Virus record (IMG/VR): IMGVR_UViG_3300043493_000130
Coordinates: 4,348 to 68,347 of that record
Strand: one strand, 5' to 3'
DNA: 64,000 nt
Source: a virus
Taxonomy: Duplodnaviria; Caudoviricetes
A program made the translations under genes and the position numbers. The first letter of the stretch is position 1. Each line of letters begins with the position of its first letter. This document shows, in pieces, positions 2 through 56,117 of the stretch. Below the pieces are notes generated by a model. The model was given only the letters and a program-made list of their open reading frames with translations, was not told the DNA's origin and did not search any database.

Positions 2-2713
2 TATATAGCGCGCGTCGTAACGGGGAAAATCGTTCACCGTGTCGATGATGTCGCGCCGGTTGGTGCCGTCGTTGTTCTCGATTTGAGGCTGCTGGCCGCC
101 CGAGCTTTCGCGAATGACCATGCCAGCGCCAGGGATCTTGTAGACGGCCCCGCCGCCACTGAAGAGCACACCCTGGCCATCGGTCCCGAAATTCAAATTG
201 CCGGTCATGGTATCGCCGGCAAGATCGACTTTGCTCGCGGACAAATCCTCCAGCGAGTCCTGAACGTTGGTTTGGCCGTTGACGTTGGGGATAACCGAGA
301 CGTTGGAGGCTGTCGTCGCCGGACCGCCAATCGCCAAATGCACCCAGGCCGTTCCATCCGAGACCAGCCAGTCGCGCGCGGCGAAGGTTATGCCGGCGGC
401 CGGTCCCGTCGTTGGCGTGCCGGGGACCGTAACGATGACGTAGTGCCCCGCTGCCACTGCGGTCGCGGGCGGCAGTGCTCCGTCGGGATAGCCGGACGCG
501 AGGGTAAAGTCGCACTGCGCATCGGCGGTGCTGGCATCCATGACGCCGACGAGGAGGACAACACCGACTGCTGTCGCGACCAAATCGTCAACGTACCGTT
601 TGTGCGTTGCCTCGCGATCGGCGACCGGAGCTGGCAGCGGCAGTATCAGCGGCCCGGTCATCGTGTCGCCAACCTTCTTGACGAAGTCGGCGGCGGCTGT
701 GTCCACGGCCCACCCGGCGTCTTTGCGTATGTACGCCTGACCGTCTAAAGGAGCCTCGGGCAGATTGATCTGCACCCACTGCGACGAGCTGCCGTCGTTG
801 TAGCGAACGTAGGTGTCACCCGTGAGGCTGTTGAACCAGATTGTATCGTCGACAGGTGCCGCCGGCGGCGTGTCGGAAACAATGACACCGCCCGCTGCGA
901 TAACTTCCTGCCATGTCGAGTTACCGAGAAGATCGCGGACGCGCGCGTAGTGCTTGTCGTCCGGCGGCGGCTCGACGATCGCGCCGGCGAGCAGATCGGT
1001 CGCGAGCGGCACCACCAGCATGCCGTCACCGCCGGAGGCATCGACGTCAGCTGCTTGAGTGGCAGAACGTGGCGGCACGTAAACACCGCCAAGGAATTGC
1101 GGCGCGATGCCGGCCGGCTGCAGGTGGACGATGTCTGGTGTGGTGCTGGTATCCTTGGTCAGGCCGGTGCCGAAGTCGAGCTGCTCGGAAACAAACGGTT
1201 GCCATGCCGGCGGGCCTGCAGCCGGGTTGACCCTTGCGTACTGCACCCCGTCCGCTGGCGCCGGCTCCACGATCGAACCCGCCAGCAGGTTGGTGGCCAG
1301 CGGCACCACCAGCCGGCCATCGCCACCGGAAGTGTCGACGTCGGCACCCTGCGTTGGACTCCGCGGTGGCACCCAAACGCCACCGAGGAATTGAGCCGCG
1401 ATGCCAGCCGGTTGCAGGTGAACGATGTCTGGTGTGGTGCTGGTATCCCGGGTCAGACCGGTGCCGAAGTCGAGCTGCTCGGCGAGAATTCGGGTCCAGT
1501 CGCCGCTGAGAGTCGTGCGCGACCTTGCATACTGCAATCCGTCAGCGGGCGGCTCGACCAGGGTGCCCGCGAAGGCACCTTGCGCAATCGGAGCCGTCAA
1601 TACGCCAGCGGCGCTCAGCGTAAGACCCTGATTGTTATCCCGCACCGGCACCGTGACGCCGCCGATTTCACCCAACGTGTTGGCGATCTGCAGGTTGACG
1701 GTGTTGCCAGTGGCATCGAGACCGATGCCAAAGTTCATGATCGCTACTTCGACATGATTGAACAGCTGAGCCGCGTCATTCCAGATGGCGTAATCGCCCT
1801 CTTTAAGCAAAACGCCATCGAGGCCGGGCGTGCTGCCAAGCGGCGGGGTTTCCGACACCGCAGGATCGGCGCAATCGACAATCCAGTAATCGCCATTGGC
1901 CTTGGCGGGGATAGCGCCGATGTTCGGCACGTTAGGAGCAGGCTGCCACATGCCCTGATAGGTCAGGTCGATCGAGCTGGTCACCGGCGTCCATGAGCTG
2001 ACGCCGGCATTGGTGCGGGTGCGCGCCCACAATTGCCCGGTGCCGTTCTGCGGCTCGACGATGCTGCCAGCCAGCGACTCAGTCGCCAGCGGCGCGGTCA
2101 GTATTCCAAGGCCGGTGTTTAGGTTGAGACCTTGGGAGACCGAACGCGGCGTGATGCGCACGCCGCCAATCTCGTTATTGGTATTGGCGATCTGCAGATC
2201 GATGGTGTTGCCGGTCATTTCCAGACCGATGCCGGCATCGATCGGCGTGCCTTCGATCCACGAGCTGGCCCCGCCTGTGGTGCGCGTGCGGGAATAGATC
2301 AGACCATCCGGCGGCGGCTCGACGATCGAACCCGCGAGCTGATCGGTTGCAAGCGGCACCACCAACTGGCCATCGCCGCCGGAGGTGGCGACGTCGGCAG
2401 CTTGCGTCGGGCTGCGCGGTGGCACCCAGACGCCGCCAAGAAACTGCGGCGCGATACCGGCCGGTTGCAGATGGACGATCGGTGGCGTCGCGGTCTCGTC
2501 CTTGGTCAGGCCGGTGCCGAAATCGAGCCCCTCGGCGGGAGCGACTAACTGCCAAGTACCGTTGACGCGGACATAGGAATTGCCGTCGGCCGGTGCCTCT
2601 TCGGTGACCGGCACCCACGACTCGTTGATGCGGCCATAGCGCTCGCCATCGACCGGCGCTTCGCCGACGATCTCCTGCTCGACCGGCAAAGGGGTTTTGC
2701 TCATGTCGTTCAT
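2..2713 (-). CDS. Large modular fibre-like virion protein (head or tail fibre); partial, runs off the left edge
   Basis: Translated by hand from ATG 2713 (MNDMSKTPLPVEQEIVGEAPVDGERYGRINESW...); no stop seen down to base 2, which is why the ORF track misses it. Contains EAPxDGxxYxR motifs, GDTMTG fibre motifs and internally repeated modules; shares a module with fibre gene 40116-41264. Confidence 0.8.
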   Translation of the reverse strand, partial: MNDMSKTPLPVEQEIVGEAPVDGERYGRINESWVPVTEEAPADGNSYVRVNGTWQLVAPAEGLDFGTGLTKDETATPPIVHLQPAGIAPQFLGGVWVPPRSPTQAADVATSGGDGQLVVPLATDQLAGSIVEPPPDGLIYSRTRTTGGASSWIEGTPIDAGIGLEMTGNTIDLQIANTNNEIGGVRITPRSVSQGLNLNTGLGILTAPLATESLAGSIVEPQNGTGQLWARTRTNAGVSSWTPVTSSIDLTYQGMWQPAPNVPNIGAIPAKANGDYWIVDCADPAVSETPPLGSTPGLDGVLLKEGDYAIWNDAAQLFNHVEVAIMNFGIGLDATGNTVNLQIANTLGEIGGVTVPVRDNNQGLTLSAAGVLTAPIAQGAFAGTLVEPPADGLQYARSRTTLSGDWTRILAEQLDFGTGLTRDTSTTPDIVHLQPAGIAAQFLGGVWVPPRSPTQGADVDTSGGDGRLVVPLATNLLAGSIVEPAPADGVQYARVNPAAGPPAWQPFVSEQLDFGTGLTKDTSTTPDIVHLQPAGIAPQFLGGVYVPPRSATQAADVDASGGDGMLVVPLATDLLAGAIVEPPPDDKHYARVRDLLGNSTWQEVIAAGGVIVSDTPPAAPVDDTIWFNSLTGDTYVRYNDGSSSQWVQINLPEAPLDGQAYIRKDAGWAVDTAAADFVKKVGDTMTGPLILPLPAPVADREATHKRYVDDLVATAVGVVLLVGVMDASTADAQCDFTLASGYPDGALPPATAVAAGHYVIVTVPGTPTTGPAAGITFAARDWLVSDGTAWVHLAIGGPATTASNVSVIPNVNGQTNVQDSLEDLSASKVDLAGDTMTGNLNFGTDGQGVLFSGGGAVYKIPGAGMVIRESSGGQQPQIENNDGTNRRDIIDTVNDFPRYDARYI

Positions 2714-2726
2714 TGTTTGCCGGCCC

Positions 2727-4454
2727 TTATGTGAAAGTGAACTGCAGGCTCAGCGGTGGCGCTACCGGAACGACGTTGTCGTGCGACCCGCCATGCTGGT
2801 GACCGATCCGGATCGTGACCGGAACGGATCCAGCTGTTGCTGGCGGCGTGAGGTCAAACCGGACGTCGCTGCCGTTCACCCAGCGCGTCGGTACTGCCGC
2901 GCCGTTGACGATCACGGTTGCGGTGTTGCCGAAGTTGGCACCGAGCAATTGGACTTCCAGCTGCGCACTGCCGCGCGGCGCAGTGTTCGGCACCAGCGAA
3001 TTGAGCACCGGGTTGAGCACGCACTGCGCTTGCATGGAGTTGGACAGCGCGGTGCCGCTGCGCACCCGCATGTCAAAGGTTCCGGTGGTGGCGTTTGCCG
3101 CACTGGTCGTCGTCGTCAGCGTCGTGGCGTTGACGTACGTCGTCGTCAGCGCCAAGGCCCCACGCATCACCACGCTGGTTGGCGTGAAATTGGAGCCAGT
3201 GTAGGTGATGGTTTTCGGTGCATCGCTGAACCCAACGATGTCCGGGAAGATAGCCGACAAGGCTGGCGTCAGCACCACCTGGGTGAAGTCGAACGGGCAG
3301 GTCGAGACTGACGTGGCGGTGCCGTTGCGCACACCGACGATCGCTCGTCGCGGCGTCGCCTCAGCCGAAGGTCTGGCGGTGAAGCGCAGCTGCGTTGTTG
3401 AGACATAGATGGTGGCGACGGCAGCCCCGTCGACCAGGACGACACTGGTCGGCTGGAAGTTGCTGCCGTTGACAGTGACGACGACATCGGCCGAAAGAAT
3501 TTCGGCGCTGGCCGGCACCAGCGGGCAGAGGATCACCGGCAGCGGAATGGCCGTCAGTGTGAACAGCGGTGCGCCTTGTCCCACGGTGGCACCGTCGCGC
3601 ACGGTAACTTGGGCTTGGCGCGGCAGCGCCTCGGCGGAGGTGTCTGCGGTAAAGCGCAGCGTGGTCGGACTGACGTAGGTGGTGGTGACGTTGGCGCCGT
3701 CCCATTGCAGCACGCAAGTCGGCGTGAATTGCAAACCGGTGGCCGTGACCAGCACGTCGGGCGACAGGCACTGCGCAGTATCCGGATTGATCGAGGTGAT
3801 CATCAGCGGCGGGATCGCCGTGAAGGTGAACGTGGGCGCGCCGAGGCCGGCGGTGGCGCCGTCTTTCACGGTGACGATCGCAGCGCGCGGCGTTAGCTCG
3901 GCCGAGGAGTCCGCCATGTAACGCAACTGCGTCGGGCTGACATAGGTCGTGGCGACGTTGGCGCCGTCCACCATCAGCACGCAGGTTGCGGTGAACACCG
4001 TGCCGTTGACGGTGACCAGCACATCGGGTGACGCGCATTGCGCAGTGTTTGGAACCAGCGAGTTGATGGCGAGAAGCGGTGCTGCCGTGAAGGTGAACCG
4101 GCAGTTACCGGCGGCCGTGGCCGCGCCGTCCCTCACCGTGATGGTTGAGGCTTTCGCCGTCGGCACCGTGCTCGGGCGGATCGGAAACGTCAATTCGCCA
4201 GTGTTAACGAAGGTGGTGGTCTGCGCCACGTTGTCGAGATAGGCGACGCACGAGGCGGTAAAATTCTGGCCGATGACGCGGCAGGTCAGGTCGGCCGAGC
4301 CGCAAATCGCCGTCGACGGAATGGTCGGGCAGATCACCGCCAGGATGGTCGGGTCGAGCGGCGCGCCGCTTCCGGCCGCAGGCGGCCACGGCTCGGGCAA
4401 GGTGCAAGGGGCAGGAGGAGCGCAATTGTCAAAGCATGCGGCAAGCATCCCCAC
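2727..4454 (-). CDS. Six-repeat IPT/TIG (Ig-like) domain protein, probable virion surface protein
   Basis: Six ~90-aa repeats of the form INSLxPxTA...V.VxGxNFxxTxVxxxDGxxVxTTYVSxTxL; AGGGAG RBS upstream of GTG 4454. Confidence 0.8.
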   Translation of the reverse strand: MGMLAACFDNCAPPAPCTLPEPWPPAAGSGAPLDPTILAVICPTIPSTAICGSADLTCRVIGQNFTASCVAYLDNVAQTTTFVNTGELTFPIRPSTVPTAKASTITVRDGAATAAGNCRFTFTAAPLLAINSLVPNTAQCASPDVLVTVNGTVFTATCVLMVDGANVATTYVSPTQLRYMADSSAELTPRAAIVTVKDGATAGLGAPTFTFTAIPPLMITSINPDTAQCLSPDVLVTATGLQFTPTCVLQWDGANVTTTYVSPTTLRFTADTSAEALPRQAQVTVRDGATVGQGAPLFTLTAIPLPVILCPLVPASAEILSADVVVTVNGSNFQPTSVVLVDGAAVATIYVSTTQLRFTARPSAEATPRRAIVGVRNGTATSVSTCPFDFTQVVLTPALSAIFPDIVGFSDAPKTITYTGSNFTPTSVVMRGALALTTTYVNATTLTTTTSAANATTGTFDMRVRSGTALSNSMQAQCVLNPVLNSLVPNTAPRGSAQLEVQLLGANFGNTATVIVNGAAVPTRWVNGSDVRFDLTPPATAGSVPVTIRIGHQHGGSHDNVVPVAPPLSLQFTFT

Positions 4455-6135: not shown

Positions 6136-6864
6136 CTACTCCTCCAAGCAAATCCGCAAGTCCGGGGCGAGCCGCCCGGGCGCGAGCATCCCGAGGCCGG
6201 GCTCGCCGGCAACCACCAGCGCCGCGCGCGGGAACAGCCGCGCGAGCGCCGCCTGCCCGAGTGTCCCGACCTCGTGAGCCTCGTCCACCAGCACCAGCGG
6301 AACATTCTCATCCGGATAGAGCCGGCCGGCCAGAATGTCCGCGTCGTCAACGACCCGCGCCCGGCGCCGGAAATCCTGCCAGCGCTCGCCGAGCTCGCTG
6401 ACGAGCGATAGCGCCGGGAGCCGCTCGCCGCGCTCTAAGGCCGCCGCATGCGCCGCCGCCATCAGCTCGCCGCGGAGCCGCGCCCGCTCCTCGAATGCAA
6501 GCCCGGCCGCGAGCTCGCGCCGCCGCTTGCGCATGAGCTTGTCGGTCGCCGCCCCCGGCTCATGCCCGCCCGCCCGCCTTATGAGCGCCATAAATTCGTC
6601 GAGGAAGCGCGCCCGGTGCTCCCACCGCACCCGGTCGAACTCCCCGCTATGCGCATAGGCGACCTCCGCCAGCGGCCCCGCCAAGGAGTCCCAAAACAGC
6701 GTCGTGAGGTCGGCGCCGAATTCGATCAGATCCGCCACCGAGCGGCGGAACATATTCGCCGCCCCGGGGTCGAGCGCCACCAGCGCAAAGCGATGCACCC
6801 GTACGTCCCACTCCTCTATTGCCTCTAATGCGACGGCGGTGAGGACGTCGCTCCGCCCGCTCAT
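6136..6864 (-). CDS. Hypothetical protein with helicase-like Walker B (LVLVDEAH) but no Walker A
   Basis: ORF track; start taken at MSGRSDV; LVLVDEAHEVG followed by ALVVAGEP. Confidence 0.5.
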   Translation of the reverse strand: MSGRSDVLTAVALEAIEEWDVRVHRFALVALDPGAANMFRRSVADLIEFGADLTTLFWDSLAGPLAEVAYAHSGEFDRVRWEHRARFLDEFMALIRRAGGHEPGAATDKLMRKRRRELAAGLAFEERARLRGELMAAAHAAALERGERLPALSLVSELGERWQDFRRRARVVDDADILAGRLYPDENVPLVLVDEAHEVGTLGQAALARLFPRAALVVAGEPGLGMLAPGRLAPDLRICLEE

Positions 6865-6991
6865 CGGCCCGCCGTCGATGGTCGCCACAAACTGCAGGCG
6901 CTTAACCAGCAGCGGCCGCAGCAGCCGCGCGGCTGACCGGCTATCGCCGCCGGCCGGCGCTTGCGGTAGACTTGGTGCGGAGGCGGGTCCC

Positions 6992-7498
6992 ATGACCGCA
7001 ACGATTATCCCTTACGAAGACGCCAGCTCAACGTTCGAGCGCGACAAAAAAGTGTTCCACCTCCGCCTTGCCGGCGTCTCGCCACGCCGGATCGCCGAGG
7101 AACTAAGTTGTTCGCTCGACCAAGTCGAGCAGTCGCTAGACCGCATGACCGGCGGCGTGAGCCCGGCGCTTCGCCAGCGCACGATCCTGATGGAGTTGGA
7201 GCGCCTCGACGCCTTGCAAAAGGTGCACTATGCCAACGCCTTGAACGGCCAAATCGGAGCCACCCTCGTGGTCGTCAAGCTCATGGAGAGGCGCTCCCGC
7301 TACCTTGGGCTTGACGCCCCGGTGCGTACCGACGACCCGCTCGGCGGCGCCGGCCAGCGGGAGTCCAGCACCGAGGGGCTCCTGCGCGAGCTCGACCGCA
7401 TCGCCGCCGAGCGCGGCCCGCCGGGCTCCGGCCCTATCATCGAGGCCGAGGTCGTCCCCGAAAGCGCCGAGGCCGCGGATGTACCTCCACGAACGTGA
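6992..7498 (+). CDS. terS: Terminase small subunit
   Basis: N-terminal HTH (RLAGVSPRRIAEEL) and ELERLDAL...LMERRSRYLGLDAP motif; overlaps the TerL start. Confidence 0.75.
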   Translation: MTATIIPYEDASSTFERDKKVFHLRLAGVSPRRIAEELSCSLDQVEQSLDRMTGGVSPALRQRTILMELERLDALQKVHYANALNGQIGATLVVVKLMERRSRYLGLDAPVRTDDPLGGAGQRESSTEGLLRELDRIAAERGPPGSGPIIEAEVVPESAEAADVPPRT

Positions 7499-8825
7499 CT
7501 TTTTTTTCGAGGAGGTCCGGCGCGTCCACGAATTCCGCGACCGCCTCGGCCGCCTGACGCAAGCCGAGCGCGAGACTTTGGCGCAGCGCATGGGCGCCAA
7601 TGCCGTCAACAATTGGAGCGTCGCGGCGCGCGGCGCGCAGCTGCCGCCGTTGAGCTTGGAAAAAGATTTCTGCTGGCTCTTCCTTGGTGGCCGCGGGACC
7701 GGAAAGTCGCGGGCAATGAGTGGCGCCGTTCATATGGCCGTGCGTGCCGGCGTGCGGCGCATCCACGTCATCGGCCCGACCACGGCAGATATTCACGACG
7801 TCTTGCTCGACGGCCCGGCCGGCATATTGCACACTGGCGGCTCCGACCCGGCCCCGCGCTGGCTGCAAAGTCGCCGCCGCCTCGAATGGCCGAACGGCGC
7901 GCACGCGGTCTTCTTTTCCGGCGAGGAACCCGAAAGCCTGCGCGGGCCCCAATGCGAATTGTGCGTGGTCGATGAGATCGCCCGCTGCCGCTACCAGCAA
8001 CTTATTTTTGATCAACTGTTCCTCGGCCTCCGCCTCGGCGCTCGCCCGCGCGTGCTCATTGCAACGACGCCGCGGCCGACGCCGTTTATGAAAAAGCTGC
8101 TCGCCATGAAGGGCGTCAGCATCACCACGGGATCGACCTATGATAATTCCCAGCATCTTTCGCCCGAGTTCATGCGCAAAGTTCGCGAGCTGTACGAAGG
8201 CACGCGCATCGGCCGGCAGGAGCTCCACGGCGCGATGCTGCTCGACCCGCAAAACGCGCTGTTCAAGGACGAGTGGCTGCAATACGACCCGGTGCCCGAG
8301 GAGCTCATTGAGCAGACGACGGTCGGCGTCGACCCGAGCGGCGGCTCGGACGAGATCGGCATTGTTGTCTCGGCTGTGCTGCGAGACGGCCGCCTCGCGG
8401 TGCTTGCCGACCGGACGCTTGTGGCGAGCCCGGCCAAGTGGGGCGACGAGGTGGTGCGCGCGCACGATGACTTCGACTGTGACGACGTGGTGGTCGAGCG
8501 AAATTTCGGCGGGGATATGTGCTCTGACGTTGTCAAGCACGCCGCAGACCGCGCCGCCCAGGCCGGCCGTCGGAAGGACAACATGATAAGGATCAAGGAG
8601 GTCGTCGCTTCGCGCGGGAAGACGATGCGCGCCGAGCCGATCTCGCTGCTGTTCGAGAAAGGAAAAGTGCTGATGCGGCCCGGGCTCGACCAGCTACAAG
8701 GCGAAATGTTATCTTTCAGCCGGGAGTGGGATCGCGCGGTTGATGGCAGTCCCAATCGGCTCGACGCGATGGTCTGGGGCCTCGCGCGGCTCGCAAAAAT
8801 TCAGATGGAAATTCCGATGGCGTGA
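7479..8825 (+). CDS. terL: Terminase large subunit
   Basis: Walker A GGRGTGKS, Walker B CVVDE, ATTPRP motif, RNase H-like nuclease VGVDP...SPNRLDAMVW. Confidence 0.95.
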   Translation: MYLHERDFFFEEVRRVHEFRDRLGRLTQAERETLAQRMGANAVNNWSVAARGAQLPPLSLEKDFCWLFLGGRGTGKSRAMSGAVHMAVRAGVRRIHVIGPTTADIHDVLLDGPAGILHTGGSDPAPRWLQSRRRLEWPNGAHAVFFSGEEPESLRGPQCELCVVDEIARCRYQQLIFDQLFLGLRLGARPRVLIATTPRPTPFMKKLLAMKGVSITTGSTYDNSQHLSPEFMRKVRELYEGTRIGRQELHGAMLLDPQNALFKDEWLQYDPVPEELIEQTTVGVDPSGGSDEIGIVVSAVLRDGRLAVLADRTLVASPAKWGDEVVRAHDDFDCDDVVVERNFGGDMCSDVVKHAADRAAQAGRRKDNMIRIKEVVASRGKTMRAEPISLLFEKGKVLMRPGLDQLQGEMLSFSREWDRAVDGSPNRLDAMVWGLARLAKIQMEIPMA

Positions 8826-8837
8826 TAAAAGGGAGGC

Positions 8838-8890
8838 GGAGCCCGGCACGGCAGTTGTGGCCGGGCTCCTGGGGTCGCCGCAGCGGCCTT
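8838..8890 (-). ncRNA. tigRNA-like unit 1 (single-spacer form)
   Basis: Minus strand AAGGCCGC-UGCG-GCGACC-CCA-GGAGCCCGG-CCA-CAACUGCCG-UG-CCGGGCUCC; same scaffold as units 2-4 but 18 nt shorter. Confidence 0.7.
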
Positions 8891-8897
8891 GCGGGCA

Positions 8898-8925
8898 AGG
8901 ATAGAGGTTAATGTGACGATGGCAA
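8898..8925 (-). promoter_or_regulatory. Candidate sigma70-type promoter of unit 1
   Basis: TTGCCA-N16-TATCCT-N7 then the first base of the leader; -35 at the same distance as in unit 4. Confidence 0.5.
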
Positions 8926-8929
8926 CACG

Positions 8930-9205
8930 ATGAGCCCCGGACCCGTCGAAGAGGTTGGCAAAGCCGCGTCCGGGTTTATGACGGCTATGTCGTCACAGCC
9001 GATTATGCTGGGCATGGTCATGATCGTGCTGGCATTGATCGGCATGCTGTTCATGACATTGCGGGCCGCGTCCGAGGCCCGTAAGAACGAATTCGAATTG
9101 ATCTTCCGGCAGCAGAAAGAAACGCAAGACATACTCTCGCGCTGCGTCGTCGTCCCGCCGCAGCAGCGTGGTGACATTGACCTGCCGCGGCTGGGCGGTC
9201 TTTGA
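8930..9205 (+). CDS. Small single-TM membrane protein (possible holin or lysis accessory)
   Basis: Hydrophobic IMLGMVMIVLALIGMLFMTL followed by a charged tail. Confidence 0.55.
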   Translation: MSPGPVEEVGKAASGFMTAMSSQPIMLGMVMIVLALIGMLFMTLRAASEARKNEFELIFRQQKETQDILSRCVVVPPQQRGDIDLPRLGGL

Positions 9206-9297
9206 TTGGTCCCGGCAGACCGGCGGCATGGAAGACCGGGGCGCGCTGGTGTAGGGTTTCCGCCACCTCAAATTCGCAAGCGAAGAGGAGAATAGCG

Positions 9298-9513
9298 ATG
9301 TCCTGTGGTGGATGCGGTCAGGCGCGCGCTCAGTTTTTTGGTGCCGTCCGGCGCGGCGACCTCGGCGGCGTCGTTCAAGCCGTGGGCACTGCGATCAATA
9401 TCAACATGGACAAAATCCGCGGCGTCGACGTCGAGAAAAAATACGGCGGCGTCAGCAAGTCTCCGATCGTCCCCGCGGTCCCGTACCGGCGGCAGCCGGG
9501 TCGGACAGTGTGA
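9298..9513 (+). CDS. Hypothetical protein (MSCGGC...)
   Basis: GAGGAG RBS; stop overlaps the portal start (TGATG). Confidence 0.6.
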   Translation: MSCGGCGQARAQFFGAVRRGDLGGVVQAVGTAININMDKIRGVDVEKKYGGVSKSPIVPAVPYRRQPGRTV

Positions 9514-10790
9514 TGCCGTCTTTTTTGTCGCGCCTCGTTTTCAAACAAGCCCCAGAGGTGGTGCCGGTGCCGACCGGCGTCGAAAGCGCCATCGGCGGCA
9601 CCGTGACCTTCGAGCGCGACAACATGATAATGCTGCGGGAGTATTACCGCTCCATCTATATGTGGCGCTGCGTGGACATGATCGCACAAATGAGCTCTTC
9701 CATTGTGCTCGACGTGGCGCCGCTGTCGAACCGCGCGCTCTCCGAGGAGGAAAAGGCGGTCGACCGGCTGATCAAGAAGCCGAACCCGCAATGGACGGCG
9801 GCGGCCTTGCAGTATTTCGTCGCAGCAAGTCTCGCGGTTGCCAATCGTTGCTACCTGCAAAAGGTCCGCAGCGAGATCGGCCGCAACGTCTTGGAGCTTT
9901 GGCCGATCCCGGCCAACGAGGTCACCACCAGATATCGCAACGGGACGCAAGTCATCGAAGCCTTCGTGCGCAGCACCGCGACCGGCATCAAGGTTTTCCC
10001 GGTCGACGATAATGGCGACTCTGACATGATCTTCATCCGGCGGCCGGTGCTCAATCATGCGTCGGACAAGTCGCCGGCTTCGGTTGCGGTGCCGCCGGCC
10101 GAGACTTTTACCCGCATCCTGCAGCGCTGCTACGACATCGTATCGAACGCCTCCAATATCACCGGGGTTCTTTCGACCGAGGCCGAGCTCGGCAAGCAGG
10201 TGGTTAAGGACGTCAAGAGCGAGGTGCAGCGCTTTCGCACCGGCGCGGCCGAGAGCGGCGGCATGCTCGTCACCGCCAATGCGAAGTGGCAGATGACGCG
10301 CCTGTCGGAAGACCCCGCGACCGCGCTCTCGGTCGAGATCAAGGACAGCCTGGCGCGCGATGTCTGCATGACCTTTGGCGTGCCGACGCAGCTCGTCGGC
10401 CTGCCGGGGACCGACACCTATAACAACCTTGCCCTCGCCCGCGTCGGCCTGCTCACGGACACCGTGCTGCCGGGCTACGTCAATCTCTATGTGAGCTCGC
10501 TCAACGACGCCTTCATGGACGACCCGGGGACCGGCGAGCGCACGGCGATGATCAAGCCGAACACGGCGGCGATCCCCTCGATGGCGGCTTCGCGGCTGCA
10601 GCTCGTCGATACCGCCGTCAAGGCCACCATGTTGACGCTCAATGAGCAGCGCGCGCTCCTCGGCTTCCCGCCCTACGAAGACGACGAGGCGGACGTTCCC
10701 GTGTTGTTGGAGGAATTGCGGATCAAGCGCTTGCAGGTCGAGAGCGGCGCCGGCAACGTTGCGGACCAGATGGCCAACGAGCCCGGGTAA
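9513..10790 (+). CDS. Portal protein, HK97 family
   Basis: WRCVDMIAQ..SS; PNPQWT; ARDVCMTFGVPTQLVG...TYNN; position after TerL. Confidence 0.9.
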   Translation: MPSFLSRLVFKQAPEVVPVPTGVESAIGGTVTFERDNMIMLREYYRSIYMWRCVDMIAQMSSSIVLDVAPLSNRALSEEEKAVDRLIKKPNPQWTAAALQYFVAASLAVANRCYLQKVRSEIGRNVLELWPIPANEVTTRYRNGTQVIEAFVRSTATGIKVFPVDDNGDSDMIFIRRPVLNHASDKSPASVAVPPAETFTRILQRCYDIVSNASNITGVLSTEAELGKQVVKDVKSEVQRFRTGAAESGGMLVTANAKWQMTRLSEDPATALSVEIKDSLARDVCMTFGVPTQLVGLPGTDTYNNLALARVGLLTDTVLPGYVNLYVSSLNDAFMDDPGTGERTAMIKPNTAAIPSMAASRLQLVDTAVKATMLTLNEQRALLGFPPYEDDEADVPVLLEELRIKRLQVESGAGNVADQMANEPG

Positions 10791-13238: not shown

Positions 13239-13874
13239 ATGTGGTATTTGATGCAAGCGATTCCGATCGGAATTCCCGGTCACGAACTTCCCCCTGGCAT
13301 CAGTGGCGGTCCCGGATCGCTGCCGCCCTATCCGAGCCAGGGCCTGCCGGGACAGCCGCCCTATCCGAGCCAGGGCCTGCCGGGACAGCCGCCCTATCCG
13401 AGCCAGGGCCTGCCGGGACAGCCGCCCTATCCGAGCCAGGGTTTGCCGGGACAGCCGCCCTATCCGAGCCAGGATTTGCCGCCCGGCATCTGGGGCGGCG
13501 CTGGCTCGCTGCCTCCGGGCGTCAGTGGGGGGCCCGGCTCGCTGCCTCCGGGCATCAGCGGCGGTCCGGGATCGTTGCCGCCCTGGGCCACGCAACTGCC
13601 TTGGGGGCCGCCGGATCAGCCCGGGGTGACCCCGCACGGCCAGGCGGTCGCGGGCGCGCCACCTGCCACTGTAGACACAGCCACGGGCGCTTGGGTGCTA
13701 GTCAGCATCGGCGGCGCGCTGGTTTGGGCATGGGCGCAGAAGCCGCAAGCCTCCGGAACGCCGGGAACGCCTGACCACACCCTGCCGCCTGGTTCCCCTG
13801 GTGCGCCGTCGCACCCGATTGCAACGCCGCCCGGCAGCACGAAGCCCGTTCAGCCCGCGCAACCGAAAGCTTAA
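13239..13874 (+). CDS. Pro/Gly-rich low-complexity protein with PPYPSQGLPGQ repeats
   Basis: GGGAG RBS; tandem 11-aa repeats, a hydrophobic W-rich segment and PDHTLP/PSHPI motifs. Confidence 0.7.
   Translation: MWYLMQAIPIGIPGHELPPGISGGPGSLPPYPSQGLPGQPPYPSQGLPGQPPYPSQGLPGQPPYPSQGLPGQPPYPSQDLPPGIWGGAGSLPPGVSGGPGSLPPGISGGPGSLPPWATQLPWGPPDQPGVTPHGQAVAGAPPATVDTATGAWVLVSIGGALVWAWAQKPQASGTPGTPDHTLPPGSPGAPSHPIATPPGSTKPVQPAQPKA
13322..13480 (+). repeat. 33-bp tandem repeat, about 5 copies, coding
   Basis: gccgccctatccgagccagggcctgccgggaca repeated head to tail. Confidence 0.95.
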
Positions 13875-16496: not shown

Positions 16497-16567
16497 GGAG
16501 CCCGGCAATCTTGCCATGGGCATCATCTAATAATTGGCCGGGCTCCTGGGGTCGCCGCAGCGACCTT
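16497..16567 (-). ncRNA. tigRNA-like unit 2 (spacers AUUAUUAGA / UGGCAAGAU)
   Basis: Minus strand AAGGUCGC-UGCG-GCGACC-CCA-GGAGCCCGG-CCA-N9-UG-AUGC-CCA-N9-UG-CCGGGCUCC; 71 nt. Confidence 0.8.
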
Positions 16568-29988: not shown

Positions 29989-30005
29989 AGCGCGCCGAGA
30001 AAGAC

Positions 30006-30076
30006 GGAGCCCGGCAGCGTCTTCCTGGGTGTCACCATCGAAATGGCCGGGCTCCTGGGGTCGCCGCAGCGGCCTT
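30006..30076 (-). ncRNA. tigRNA-like unit 3 (spacers UUUCGAUGG / GGAAGACGC)
   Basis: Minus strand AAGGCCGC-UGCG-GCGACC-CCA-GGAGCCCGG-CCA-N9-UG-ACAC-CCA-N9-UG-CCGGGCUCC; 71 nt. Confidence 0.8.
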
Positions 30077-30115
30077 GAATAGCTCGTAGCGCAATTCGCA
30101 CGACGGTGTAAGCCA

Positions 30116-51745: not shown

Positions 51746-52310
51746 TGATGTGAGAGGGCATTGGTGCGTTGACGTCCGACCACGACCGCCATCCGGCGGC
51801 CGTGAGTTCGGTGGAATAGACTTCGCCGCGCGGCTTGATCGCGCGCCATGCTTGGTCACAGAAGACCCGGTAATGGAGCATGTCGCACGCCGCGCCCTCC
51901 GGAGACTTGGGAGTTTCGATCCACGCGAGGCGCGCGTCGGGGAAAAACAGTTTGTCGCCCCATTGCCGCGCGAGCGAATGGTCATAAGGCGCGGAGGCGA
52001 TATCTAAGCCAAGCGTCTGCAGCGCGTGCACGCTCATCAAGCGCCGCGCCGGCCAAAGAAGCTGCGGCGCGCGGAACGAAAGGCTCAAATGCAGGCACCG
52101 CTCGTAGTCGGGATTTTTGAACCAACCACCGGAGTGGTGGCCGACGTCGCGTGTGAAGAAGATGACGGTGCCGGTCTGTCCGTGAAAGTGGCAGCAGGCG
52201 GCGAAGTAGGCGCTCGAGCGCGGAGAATTGAGGAGGCCGTCAAACACGCCGCGCGCCGCGCGCTGCCGGATGAAGCCGATCATGTTTTCGGGGATTTCGA
52301 GCATCGTCAT
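51735..52310 (-). CDS. Hypothetical protein
   Basis: RD.GHH..GWFKNPDYERC.HLS.S motif. Confidence 0.7.
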   Translation of the reverse strand: MTMLEIPENMIGFIRQRAARGVFDGLLNSPRSSAYFAACCHFHGQTGTVIFFTRDVGHHSGGWFKNPDYERCLHLSLSFRAPQLLWPARRLMSVHALQTLGLDIASAPYDHSLARQWGDKLFFPDARLAWIETPKSPEGAACDMLHYRVFCDQAWRAIKPRGEVYSTELTAAGWRSWSDVNAPMPSHINAD

Positions 52311-53314
52311 GTGGCTCCGTTCTCGCTTGGCATGGCGTCGAGGTCCGCCCGATGCTTATCGAGGGCGGCTTGAAGATGTTTGGACATTTTGGGCGCGGCG
52401 GCTTTCATCTCGGCAAGCGCACCATCATTCTGCGTAAGCCACTGGTCGATCTCGGCGGCGGTGCGCGCCGAGCGCGCGGCGGCGATGAAGCTTTGGCCCC
52501 AGGCGCGCCAGTCGATTTGCCCGTCGGCGAGGTAGGCGAGCGGGAGCGCGTTCGGCGGCTCCGGTTCCGCGGCGGTGATCTCGCCGGTGTCCGGGTCGAC
52601 GGTCTCCGCGGGTGGTGCCGGGGCTGGCGGCGCTGGCGGCGTCCACTTTGGCTCAGGCGGTTCGGGGCGCGTTTCGACCATCTGACCGGCCATCTCCTCG
52701 GCGGTTAAAGCCCCCTCTTCTGGGAATGCGGCGCGGAGCGCGAAAGCTTTCGCGACCTTGGCGAGCTGGCCGCGCGGCCGCTTTAACCACTGCGCGTTTG
52801 GGAGCTCCGTGCCGCCCTGGCGGCCATACGCTTCGAGCCAGTAGACCTCTTCCGCGAAAGCGCGCGGCGCGCCGTCAACAATTTTGTAGACAGTGATCGA
52901 ACACCATTCCGGGAATTCGACCTTTTGCTCGACCTTGACCCAGCTGTCTTTTCTCTTGACCTCGCCGCGGAAGGTGCGCGTGTCCGTCGGGCCCCAGACG
53001 GGGCGGTCCATGCCGGCCCAAAGGCCGGTCCGTGCGGCCGTGATCTCGACCTCGGCTATCGAGGGCCAGATCGTTTCCACATTGCGGCCGAGCTCCGAGT
53101 TCCAGACCGGGACGATATTGACCGGACGTTTTAAGACGTCGAGGCCGCGCGCGCGGCAGTAGTCGAGGGCAAGAAGAATTGACCCGGCGCTGCGCGCCAT
53201 GGGGAAGATCGCTTCAGTGAGGACGCGCCAGCGGCCGGCGTCGAGGTCGGCGACGCCCGCGGGCATCGGAAGCCGGAATTCCGGCGCGGCGGTGGCGAGG
53301 GCGGTGGTGGTCAT
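52307..53314 (-). CDS. bet: Phage single-strand annealing protein, Bet/RecT family
   Basis: LDYCRARGLD.LKR.V.IV; RITAART-like; W.KRPRGQL.K.A.A.ALR.AFP. Confidence 0.88.
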   Translation of the reverse strand: MTTTALATAAPEFRLPMPAGVADLDAGRWRVLTEAIFPMARSAGSILLALDYCRARGLDVLKRPVNIVPVWNSELGRNVETIWPSIAEVEITAARTGLWAGMDRPVWGPTDTRTFRGEVKRKDSWVKVEQKVEFPEWCSITVYKIVDGAPRAFAEEVYWLEAYGRQGGTELPNAQWLKRPRGQLAKVAKAFALRAAFPEEGALTAEEMAGQMVETRPEPPEPKWTPPAPPAPAPPAETVDPDTGEITAAEPEPPNALPLAYLADGQIDWRAWGQSFIAAARSARTAAEIDQWLTQNDGALAEMKAAAPKMSKHLQAALDKHRADLDAMPSENGAT

Positions 53315-53316
53315 TG

Positions 53317-53856
53317 TTAGTTGCGTCTTTCGTAGAGTTTGCGCACCTCGGCTTCTTGCAACACCGTGCCGACAATCTCGCCGGGCTTCAGCTTGTCCGC
53401 GATCCGCGCCAGCCAAGGCGACATCTTAGTGCTCATCCGCCTGCATTCGCGCCCGGTGCAGTCACGCAGCGCCTTTCCGTTCGGGAGCACCAAGTCGAGC
53501 AGGATTTGCTGTGCCGTTGCGGCCGCCGCTTGTACGGCGCCCTCCTTGATGCGTTCCGCCCGCTGTTGCGCGGCTCGCCGGGAAGCCTCAATCCGATTCG
53601 CCCGCGACGGAGCGCCCGGGATCGGAAAGTAGTCCAACAGACTGCGATAGTTGTTGGTGAACGCGTGCTCAATGGCCTCCTCCAGAATTTCCTCATCGTT
53701 CAGTGCCTGCTGGCGGAAGTCCGCGCGGATGGTCTTGCGATCCTCCGGCGAGTGCGGGTTTGCCACCCCCTTCATCAGTTCCATCAGCGCTGTACGCAAA
53801 GGCGAACGGTCGCTTTGCTTGGTGGCACCGTATGCGCGGTCTACTTCAAACGTCAT
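53317..53856 (-). CDS. Hypothetical protein
   Basis: LLDLVLPNGKALRDCTG motif. Confidence 0.65.
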   Translation of the reverse strand: MTFEVDRAYGATKQSDRSPLRTALMELMKGVANPHSPEDRKTIRADFRQQALNDEEILEEAIEHAFTNNYRSLLDYFPIPGAPSRANRIEASRRAAQQRAERIKEGAVQAAAATAQQILLDLVLPNGKALRDCTGRECRRMSTKMSPWLARIADKLKPGEIVGTVLQEAEVRKLYERRN

Positions 53857-54817
53857 GCTGTCCTCCAATGTCAGCCGGCAATCCAAAGTGCGCGCGCAAG
53901 GCCGCCGGCAGTACCTTGAACATGCGCAGAGCGGCGGGGCCGTCCTTCCATTCGCAAGGTCCGTAGAGCTCGCGGTAGGCCAGGACGGCGGCGCGGTATT
54001 CGATATTCAAACGCTGGCTTATTTCGCGGCGTCGTTCCGGATTCTCGGCCGCCCAGCGTTGGGCCATTTCACGACGGAGCTCCGGATTTTCCCAATATCG
54101 CTGTCGTGCCTGCTCACGCCTGAGCTCAAGGTTCTTGGCATAATCCCGGCGTGAAAAGTTACGGCTGAATTCGCGCCGGCGTTCCGGATTTTTAGCGATC
54201 CAGCGCTTCATGCTTTCACGGTTAAGCTTCCGGCGGCACTTTTGCGAGCACGTTTGGCTGCGATGGGTGAGAAACTCCGTGCCGCAAACGCGGCAGGACG
54301 CGGTCCGGGGCGGGTGGCGCCTGGCATACGATTGGCGCCCTCGCTCTCTACAGTATTCGCGGTACGTGACATCATGCTGCAGCCGATATTTCCGACGTTT
54401 GTTTATCCACACCCGGTCAAGCCGTTGACGCCTTAGCTCATTAATGTGGTCGCGATGCTCAGCACGCCGTTGGCGGCTCCTTTCCTTCGCCAGTTCCGGA
54501 TTTCTAATACGCCACCGACGCGCATGTGCACGCTTATGCTTTAGCCTGAGTTCCCGACGACAGAATTTCGAGCAGGTCATGGCGTTATGACCTTTACCCC
54601 TGGCGACGAACTCATTTTCACAGATGCAACAAGCGCGCGGTGGTAATTCCCGGCGCCGTCGTTCGCGGCTTAGGCGATAATACTTGCGCGCCCTTTCGTG
54701 CGCCCTTTCCCGACTGCAATCCGGCGAGCACGTCACGGGGGGGCCGCGGCCCTTGAGGATAAACCCCTTTCCGCAAACCCGGCACTTGCGCATAACCGGT
54801 GGTTTCGTTTTGCTCAT
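53846..54817 (-). CDS. Basic multi zinc-finger protein (CxxC...TCSxxC x3), no nuclease motif seen
   Basis: CRVCGKGF..TCSPDC; CCICENEF..TCSKFC; CRVCGTEF..TCSQKC; Arg-rich W..xNPE repeats. Confidence 0.7.
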   Translation of the reverse strand: MSKTKPPVMRKCRVCGKGFILKGRGPPVTCSPDCSRERAHERARKYYRLSRERRRRELPPRACCICENEFVARGKGHNAMTCSKFCRRELRLKHKRAHARRWRIRNPELAKERSRQRRAEHRDHINELRRQRLDRVWINKRRKYRLQHDVTYREYCRERGRQSYARRHPPRTASCRVCGTEFLTHRSQTCSQKCRRKLNRESMKRWIAKNPERRREFSRNFSRRDYAKNLELRREQARQRYWENPELRREMAQRWAAENPERRREISQRLNIEYRAAVLAYRELYGPCEWKDGPAALRMFKVLPAALRAHFGLPADIGGQHDV

Positions 54818-55302
54818 GGCGATTGCTCGCGCGTGCGGATGACAGCCTTTTTGATGTTGTCGGGCAGTTCGCGCGCCGGTTCGACTTCCACCAGCTTGCC
54901 GTCGCGAATTTCTAAGACCGGCTGCGCAACCGCCTTCGTCATCTCGGCCAAGACCCAGAACAGATCCGCGCGCGTTTCCGCTGCGACGGCCACCGGATCG
55001 GTCCAGCTTGTTGGGACCGGGTCGCCCTCGGTGTAATAGCATTCGTGAATGGCGTAGTTGACGTCCGCCCCGTCCTCGCTGCGGATCACCCGATAATTCC
55101 AATTCACGCTCGCCTCCGATTGCGGTTTAGGGATCACGGCGCCGTCCGCACGCGCGACCTCAGCCCAGGCCGCGGCCGCGCTAGCGGCGTCGGCGAGCGC
55201 CTCATCCACCGTCCCCCCCATCGCCGTGCAGCCGGGCAAATCAGGAATGACGACGCCGTAAGCGCCGGGCTCGCCATCGACGATGGCGCGGTAGCGAGTC
55301 AT
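54814..55302 (-). CDS. HicB-like N-terminal domain fused to a WNYRV-type phage domain
   Basis: YGVVIPDLPGCTAMG.TVDEAL.DA..A followed in frame by NWNYRVIRS...IHECYY. Confidence 0.72.
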   Translation of the reverse strand: MTRYRAIVDGEPGAYGVVIPDLPGCTAMGGTVDEALADAASAAAAWAEVARADGAVIPKPQSEASVNWNYRVIRSEDGADVNYAIHECYYTEGDPVPTSWTDPVAVAAETRADLFWVLAEMTKAVAQPVLEIRDGKLVEVEPARELPDNIKKAVIRTREQSP

Positions 55303-56117
55303 GTCAGGACCTTTATTGACACCGCGCGTGCGCGGTTGCGCTTGACGATCGTGCCGCCGCTGATGAGTTCGCCGCAGTCGTCGGGCAAAAGTTTTTTCAC
55401 GTCGGCGCTCGCGGCGGCGTGCAGCTCGGCCGCGGCGCGCGTCTCGCGCCATTGCGCAAGATTCCATTGCATGGTTGCACGCCAGTTCAGATTTTCGGTG
55501 GCGGGATCGTCGAGGTCGATTTTGGTCCAACGCTCGGGCGGCGGCGGGAGCGGGGGGAGCGGCACCGGCGGCGTCAGGTTCTCGACGCAGGCCCAAAACT
55601 GGTCGATGCGAAGCCAGATGCTTTCCTCATAATCCGGCGTGATGTTGGCAAACAATTCCTGCGGCTCGGCGCCGCCGTGGACGACGACGAGGGCGGCGAA
55701 CTCGGCCTCGGGCACGCAGGCGCGCTGCACGACGAGCTGCGGCGTGTAATAGGCGAGCCGGTCGTCGAGCCCTAAGCGGGAGTCGATCCACTTGGCGTCG
55801 AGGACGGCGCGGTCGCTGGCGCGGTAGCCGTCGAGCGTCGCGGCGACGTGCGGCCGCGTCGGGTGAAAGACGACTTCGCCGCGGCGCGAGATTTCCGATT
55901 TGGTTTTTTGCTCGCGCCAGTCGAGAGCGAGGCCTTCGACGTGCGAGCCGAGCGCCATCGGCCAGCTCTTCGAGAAGTCCTCGGGCTCCCACGTCGGGTC
56001 GCCGACCAATTCCTTCCACTTCGAGAGGATCGCCGCGCTGTTGCCGGAGATGAGCTGGGGCACGAAGGACGCGGTGATTTTTCCATCGCGGAGGATTTTT
56101 TGAGCGGGGCTCAGCAT
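55299..56117 (-). CDS. YqaJ-like viral exonuclease
   Basis: RDGKITAS; G.HVE; ATLDG; DAK; YY.PQL..Q; partner of Bet. Confidence 0.88.
   Translation of the reverse strand: MLSPAQKILRDGKITASFVPQLISGNSAAILSKWKELVGDPTWEPEDFSKSWPMALGSHVEGLALDWREQKTKSEISRRGEVVFHPTRPHVAATLDGYRASDRAVLDAKWIDSRLGLDDRLAYYTPQLVVQRACVPEAEFAALVVVHGGAEPQELFANITPDYEESIWLRIDQFWACVENLTPPVPLPPLPPPPERWTKIDLDDPATENLNWRATMQWNLAQWRETRAAAELHAAASADVKKLLPDDCGELISGGTIVKRNRARAVSIKVLT

Follow-up and report, generated by a model that had tools for sequence, protein, structure and literature searches.

The hairpin that follows the terL gene in the phage genome of IMG/VR record IMGVR_UViG_3300043493_000130 raises the question of whether a guide-like unit with a single spacer might be a working RNA, either as a guide in its own right or as a decoy, or whether it is what remains of an ordinary two-spacer unit. 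The window considered here is a stretch of 64,000 nucleotides (positions 4,348 to 68,347 of the record) and it contains four hairpins built on a common scaffold, which we number as units 1 to 4 in their order along the window (Table 1). Units 2-4 are 71 nt long and have the layout CCA-N9-UG, a 4-nt linker and a second CCA-N9-UG, whereas unit 1 (8838-8890, minus strand) is 53 nt long, the difference being one 18-nt module. The sequence agrees on this point with the original prediction, which described unit 1 as keeping the leader and a perfect 9-bp stem around a single CCA-N9-UG, 18 nt short of the other three.

By the published definition, the guide units of TIGR systems carry a box C (CCA) 5' and a box D (UG) 3' of each spacer (PMC12045711) and have spacers of 8-12 nt and palindromic stems (PMC12045711; 10.64898/2026.09.09.750476). 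[quoted passage not shown] 2026, 10.64898/2026.09.09.750476). Unit 1 has CCA directly 5' and UG directly 3' of its spacer, a palindromic stem around these boxes and, by sequence, the CUU at the stem base, but a single 9-nt spacer stands where the definition asks for two (8-12 nt each, with a loop of ~9 nt between them), and the inter-spacer loop is absent. When folded, its stem comprises 9 perfect base pairs (10 if the C-G pair of boxes C and D is counted) and the one box C/D pair closes a 9-nt loop. Its leader is identical to that of unit 3.

Table 1. Positions in the window of unit 1 and its parts, of the neighbouring signals and of the other three units
Feature	Position	Strand	Basis or remark
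Stop codon of terL (terL ORF 7305-8825)	8823..8825	+	Terminase homologues; unit 1 starts 12 nt downstream
Unit 1, pyrimidine-rich 3' tail with CUU at stem base	8827..8837	-	Motif parse and preprint 10.64898/2026.09.09.750476
Unit 1, stem 3' arm	8838..8846	-	Sequence and fold
Unit 1, box D (UG)	8847..8848	-	Definition in PMC12045711
Unit 1, sole 9-nt spacer, CAACUGCCG	8849..8857	-	Motif parse
Unit 1, box C (CCA)	8858..8860	-	Definition in PMC12045711
Unit 1, stem 5' arm	8861..8869	-	Sequence and fold
Unit 1, 22-nt leader with small hairpin	8870..8891	-	Motif parse, X-Y pair comparison and fold
Sigma-70-like promoter match directed at the unit 1 leader (TTGCCA, 16 nt, TATCCT)	8898..8925	-	Consensus match only; 1 found, 0.2 expected
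Unit 2, two spacers, downstream of the major capsid gene	16497..16567	-	Motif parse
Unit 3, two spacers, in a ~130-nt insert missing from L283 and L284	30006..30076	-	Motif parse and relatives
Unit 4, two spacers; stem with one wobble and one mismatch; leader hairpin broken	41280..41350	-	Parse and fold

An assembly error at a locus that is truly 71 nt long is ruled out, since independent, gap-free contigs from four public metagenome runs cross the one-spacer loop. The Logan contigs of runs X1, X2 and X3 span it over 578 nt (8310-8887) with 0 differences and 0 gaps, and a Logan contig of run X4 does so over 458 nt (8698-9155) with one substitution, at 8765. These runs come from four studies and represent soil and sediment; X1 and X2 may be source samples. 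A two-spacer allele of the type found in a related phage (L098, described below) was not detected at a share of at least 10% in the four runs, a result of little weight given that short contigs break at the repeat.

The four units are dispersed along the genome, at 8.8, 16.5, 30.0 and 41.3 kb, as lone units and not as the tandem array of a TIGR-Tas system. All of them lie 11-17 nt downstream of the stop codons of plus-strand late genes (terL, capsid, chaperone and fibre), and on the leader side each has ~40 nt of flanking sequence of its own. An 18-mer that extends across stem and tail occurs in exactly four copies in the 68,347-bp record, and searches for the stem-plus-tail 16- and 18-mers elsewhere, in viral, metagenome and genome collections, returned chance matches to coding sequence only, which speaks against a dispersed repeat of the REP or MITE type from the host. 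Rfam gave zero families at gathering thresholds across the window. A repeat of another kind is present at 13322-13579, where a 33-nt sequence is repeated in tandem (4.6 copies at 98% identity, followed by 3 more-diverged copies) inside a 211-aa ORF without assigned function, between a Mu-F-like gene and a protease gene.

To place the units among known elements, IMG/VR was scanned with a pattern of the box motifs and a 9-nt loop alone, which returned more than 116 loci, and again with the stem of the phage's own units. Together, the two scans yielded 290 unique dual (two-spacer) units, 282 of which have 9+9-nt spacers, as do units 2-4. The dual-unit motif with flanking stems was matched 156 times in the fetched loci and 0 times in the same sequences reversed; this control and the four stem-plus-tail 18-mers in the record argue that the motif is not a product of chance. 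Fifty-five of the related units have the same stem as the units of this phage. In related phage contigs the units are arranged as pairs, X followed by Y, and the units examined here match Y in stem, loop and tail. The closest relatives by sequence are units linked to a Tas gene in the contigs L142 (IMGVR_UViG_3300036828_000592), L138 (3300044492_000185) and G413 (3300020016_000008), with which they have the Y stem (near-identical), the 9-nt loop, the tail and, upstream, the core of the partner stem in common. The leader hairpin occupies the position of partner X and retains the X stem core, so that it is probably a relic of X minus both spacers. These sequence features identify all four as homologues of stem-loop TIGR guide units, carried on the minus strand; the assignment to this type made in the original prediction is thus borne out by the box motifs, the stem, the tail and the homology to Tas-linked units. 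Two of the contigs (L142:2100-4800, minus strand, and G413, in L272-L274) have X-Y pairs with two alternating stems, which amounts to four spacers per pair. Most of the G413 units lie less than 3 kb from tas, and one pair is 20 kb away; remote lone units thus occur in Tas-positive phages as well.

The differences from these relatives are as instructive as the similarities. The contigs with Tas-linked pairs encode a Tas of 270-360 aa next to the units (in L142 at 2272-3339, minus strand) and have an X with two spacers; the phage considered here lacks Tas, its X has shrunk to a small hairpin and unit 1 is short of one module. A second comparison is offered by the stem-loop TIGR arrays that are associated with nuclease-less TasA or dead TasR (PlTasA, BlTasA, PateTasR and CsTasR; Faure et al. 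2025, PMC12045711; Xu et al. 2026, 10.64898/2026.09.09.750476; Guan et al. 2026, 10.64898/2026.08.11.744272). The palindromic stem, the CCA/9-nt spacer/UG order, the CUU, the phage origin and the flexible position of units are common to both. Unlike those arrays, the units here are spread singly over 32 kb, antisense to their neighbours, in a complete record that has no tas gene, and unit 1 has one spacer, one box C/D pair and no inter-spacer loop. Among the papers covered by our search, none deals with orphan or one-spacer TIGR units.

How firmly can the absence of Tas be stated? In 17 of 41 related loci the units adjoin members of one protein family of 270-460 aa. A profile built for this family (A1) matches PDB entry 9mty_A, an IS110 C-terminal-domain protein, at E 6e-32, TasH at 1e-12 and the IS621 bridge recombinase at 4e-3, and single members give weak matches to Pfam Transposase_20. 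These profile matches identify the family as Tas, apparently without nuclease activity, as a nuclease domain was not detected in it. A six-frame search of the 68-kb record with A1 and with the Pfam profiles Nop, Nop5 N-terminal and Transposase_20 found no Tas. The same A1 profile, as a positive control, finds Tas in 7 of 10 other records that have the same stem (E 1e-87 to 1e-92), including both of those that are at least 90% complete. As the record itself is rated 100% complete by CheckV, the units of this phage are orphans. A 285-aa ORF (6136-6993, minus strand) was considered as a candidate Tas and rejected, with zero support from PDB or Pfam. The genes that accompany Tas elsewhere are also missing here, except for one weak match that belongs to an unrelated early-gene family. 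The 189-aa protein encoded next to RecT (53317-53886, minus strand) resembles weakly (E 1e-7) a small family encoded just upstream of tas in L103, L110, L114 and L206.

In other respects the genome is an ordinary one. Pfam searches with 40 ORFs describe a temperate siphovirus-like phage with genes for terminase, portal, protease, capsid, tail and amidase, for integrase, Prim-Pol and D5 helicase, for the recombination proteins RecT (52307-53416, minus strand) and a YqaJ-type exonuclease (55299-56117, minus strand), and for methylases. The names of terL and capsid homologues point to a Bradyrhizobium-like soil alphaproteobacterium as the probable host. A supply of Tas in trans from Rhizobiales, the likely host group, is possible, because a Tas of the same family is encoded in 3 of 401 sampled Rhizobiales genomes (L241:9826-10115, L242:10058-10348 and L240:9972-10174; E 1e-49 to 1e-59). 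Stem-loop units lie alongside these bacterial Tas genes, with another inter-spacer loop (CGCAACCCA type). The phage capsid protein found zero matches in the 401 Rhizobiales genomes.

The most direct information about the history of unit 1 comes from the same locus in relatives of the phage, where the original prediction had proposed to look for a two-spacer form. Such a form exists in L098 (JGI sample 3300043473), whose terL product is 100% identical to that of the window at the C-terminus. At the exact site behind terL, L098 has a full 71-nt unit with 9+9-nt spacers and a 9-nt loop between them, and ~200 nt around the unit are identical to the window except for the loop. Neither of the two spacers resembles that of unit 1, so that L098 is not the direct ancestor of the one-spacer allele. 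Over a longer distance (window 7961-9613), L098 alternates between blocks that are 100% identical to the window and blocks of ~88-90% identity, which we take as a sign of frequent recombination. A search of IMG/VR for a dual unit with the spacer of unit 1 gave 7 matches, none of which belongs to a unit, and no relatives of terL were found in the genome-contig collection.

Other, more distant relatives are without units at these junctions. The post-terL unit is absent from L010 and L099, the post-capsid unit from L100 and L101 and the post-chaperone unit from L283 and L284, which have 7 nt between the chaperone stop and the tape-measure start where the phage has the ~130-nt insert with unit 3 (window 29989-30115 compared with L283:2800-2978 and L284:748-926). 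The vacant terL, capsid and chaperone junctions mark the units as insertions that come and go. The presence of unlike spacers between identical flanks in unit 1 and in L098 indicates, furthermore, that the spacers change at a far higher rate than the scaffold, and the completeness of the difference suggests active turnover, or exchange with other units or arrays, as opposed to plain decay. Two observations made on these relatives deserve mention. The terL relative in L099 (1579-3939; 83% identical, 786 aa) contains an intein (Pfam Intein_splicing), and in the post-capsid gap, where the phage has unit 2, relatives carry long tracts with a period of 5 nt (NNAGC in L101:2400-2620 and GGCAT in L100:1000-1080).

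If single-spacer units were a functional class, they might be expected to recur. Hairpins of the form stem-CCA-N8-10-UG-stem were not more common in loci with dual units (26) than in the reversed controls (20), and none of them has the stem of the neighbouring dual unit. The IMG/VR scan for one-spacer units with the same stem returned five copies of one ordinary terminator and one chance match. The terminator copies, which are in five unrelated phages (L243, L244, L246, L247 and L248), consist of an A-tract, a hairpin with always the same loop and a T-tract; they fit the one-spacer TIGR pattern exactly and are a trap for searches based on the motif. No genuine single-spacer unit was found among the ~290 related units, and because of this a one-off deletion fits the uniqueness of unit 1 better than a functional class.

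We consider it fairly probable that unit 1 is a relic, formed by deletion of one module from a two-spacer unit within an orphan set of a phage without Tas, and that it is most likely inactive as a guide, recent and neutral. The homology, the exact 18-nt difference, the two-spacer allele in L098, the absence of Tas and the presence of the allele in four data sets are direct observations; how the module was deleted, that guide activity was lost and that the unit is neutral are our reading of them. The four orphan units would have entered a temperate soil phage without Tas by insertion between its genes, antisense to the late operon, and an ancestral two-spacer unit would then have lost one spacer, the 4-nt linker and one set of boxes C and D, which add up to 18 nt. 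The modules of a dual unit are direct repeats of each other at CCA and UG only, and deletion between the two copies of either motif takes out exactly 18 nt, with a perfect hairpin of one module as the product. The original prediction of a precise deletion by recombination between the two CCA motifs is supported as regards the loss of exactly one module, to which the L098 allele and the lack of other single-spacer units also testify; the UG pair would give the same product as the CCA pair. The event was probably a replication slippage in the hairpin or a short-homology recombination between the repeated CCA or UG, in a phage that encodes RecT and a YqaJ-type exonuclease of its own.

The consequences of such a deletion for guide function can be anticipated from work on tigRNAs. 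The two box C/D pairs of a tigRNA, at the stem and at the loop, are each bound by one Nop domain of the Tas dimer, its spacers base-pair with opposite strands of the DNA, and one-spacer tigRNAs do not guide cleavage by TaTasR (PMC12045711). An RNA from unit 1 would have room for at most one Nop domain of the dimer and would be unable to pair with both strands of a target; its single box C/D pair and the inactivity of one-spacer tigRNAs with TaTasR make guide activity unlikely. The units of this genome can also be arranged as a possible series of decay, with units 2 and 3 intact, unit 4 with mismatches in its stem (and folding no better than shuffled sequences), unit 1 minus a module and the leader hairpin minus both spacers. 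A relic of this kind might persist if it were recent and neutral.

Several points count against a relic. The scaffold of unit 1 is perfect, and its sigma-70-like promoter match, which lies at a suitable distance upstream of the leader, is the only one among the four units at the threshold of the tool used, with none at units 2-4 (unit 4 has, by eye, TTGCCA, 17 nt and CACCAT, equally far from its leader); a search of the runs listed for this DNA found no RNA run. Four metagenomes contain the one-spacer allele, which is not obviously selected against, and the direct two-spacer ancestor has not been seen, the spacers of L098 being different ones. The undecayed stem and promoter had been taken in the original prediction as evidence of selection. 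This argument fails, because the ~200 nt that flank the unit are 100% identical to those in L098 and in the four metagenomes, and there has been too little time for decay to become visible. Unit 1 is most likely a decaying unit, or at best a decoy, and not a new kind of guide.

Among the alternatives, the one that survives best is that unit 1 is a working decoy, whose RNA, with the stem and one box C/D pair retained, would bind a Tas protomer of the host or of a co-resident prophage and so blunt the system to which that Tas belongs. The scaffold is intact, a promoter-like site is present, the allele is found in four data sets and Tas of the same family is available both in the three Rhizobiales genomes and in other soil phages whose units have this stem; in a phage without its own Tas, any activity would have to be exerted in trans. 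However, the ~290 related units include no other one-spacer unit, so that the solution does not recur; the three intact dual units of the phage would be at least as good for the purpose, and selection has had no time to show. We find a decoy rather unlikely on balance, and the non-targeting sponge of the original prediction is left unsupported.

A different alternative makes the TIGR ancestry irrelevant and lets the hairpins act on the plus strand, where they would stabilise the 3' ends of late mRNAs or terminate them weakly, in which case unit 1 would be no more than a tighter hairpin. The position of all four units just behind late-gene stops, which they share, as GC-rich hairpins, with the intrinsic terminators and 3' stabilisers of phage late genes, is in keeping with this, as is the lack of a minus-strand promoter match at units 2-4. 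The small second hairpin, in the leader, is clearly stronger on the plus strand, where three G-U pairs take the place of mismatches on the minus strand. Intrinsic terminators are nevertheless not supported, as a terminator search of both strands gave nothing at units 1-4 and the U-tract is absent. Close relatives manage without a hairpin at the same junctions, and unit 1 has its family-specific leader and tail in common with units 2-4, unlike terminators or 3' stabilisers. The box motifs, the loop length, the 9-nt spacing and the CUU tail make sense on the minus strand only, antisense to the late genes, and the wholesale exchange of spacers between identical flanks would be needless for an mRNA loop. 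We consider a role as an mRNA hairpin clearly unlikely.

The weakest alternative, which we regard as extremely improbable, is that unit 1 works as a half guide, two copies of which, or one symmetric Tas dimer, would target a palindrome composed of the spacer and its reverse complement. The geometry is right, inasmuch as TasR cuts leave 8-nt 3' overhangs, from which it follows that a target consists of spacer A and then the reverse complement of spacer B, and one spacer used twice requires that palindrome. The palindromic 18-mer, for which the original prediction had suggested a search, is missing from the phage (best match with 4 mismatches) and has only 3 matches in IMG/VR, all with a 2-nt gap and at about chance level, two of them at one locus in phages related to each other. 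With its single box C/D pair, one RNA would be unable to fill both protomers, one-spacer tigRNAs are inactive in vitro (PMC12045711) and the phage has no Tas, so that the functional one-guide form that had been claimed finds no support. Targets for the other spacers did not emerge either. A search of the phage for self-targets of all its spacers, in both geometries and with gaps of 0-2, found nothing below 3 mismatches; the spacers of 150 foreign units compared with this phage, and the phage's spacers compared with 1.6 Mb of fetched related loci, gave 2-mismatch matches only, at chance level in both cases.

Taken together, the possibility that the one-spacer hairpin is a selected and expressed RNA that binds the Tas of a host or rival prophage, whether as an anti-TIGR decoy or as a half guide, appears quite improbable. 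Were it true, a Tas-less phage would be a user or a saboteur of another's RNA-guided system. Solitary CRISPR repeat units of phages act as RNA anti-CRISPRs that blunt Cas proteins, and viruses also bear orphan mini-CRISPR arrays. The units considered here are like these in being guide-like pieces in a virus without the effector, which could act only through an outside effector; they differ in belonging to another RNA-guided system.

If unit 1 is a module-loss relic, it is probably a dead end in itself, and its value would lie in marking the route of the deletion and in its use as a natural negative or decoy control in binding assays. What appears to be new is a one-spacer derivative of a known element, set among orphan guide units of a complete phage genome that lacks Tas. 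The origins and natural targets of TIGR spacers are unknown (Faure et al. 2025, PMC12045711), and the locus behind terL provides two natural alleles between the same flanks, with one spacer in this phage and two unrelated ones in L098, which show that precise drop-out of whole modules can occur and that the turnover of spacers is much faster than that of the scaffold. Guide units evidently live here in a phage genome that is complete and yet lacks the effector, a situation to which the published surveys, being anchored on tas, are blind, and the existence of such orphan units raises the idea of guides or decoys that might act in trans.
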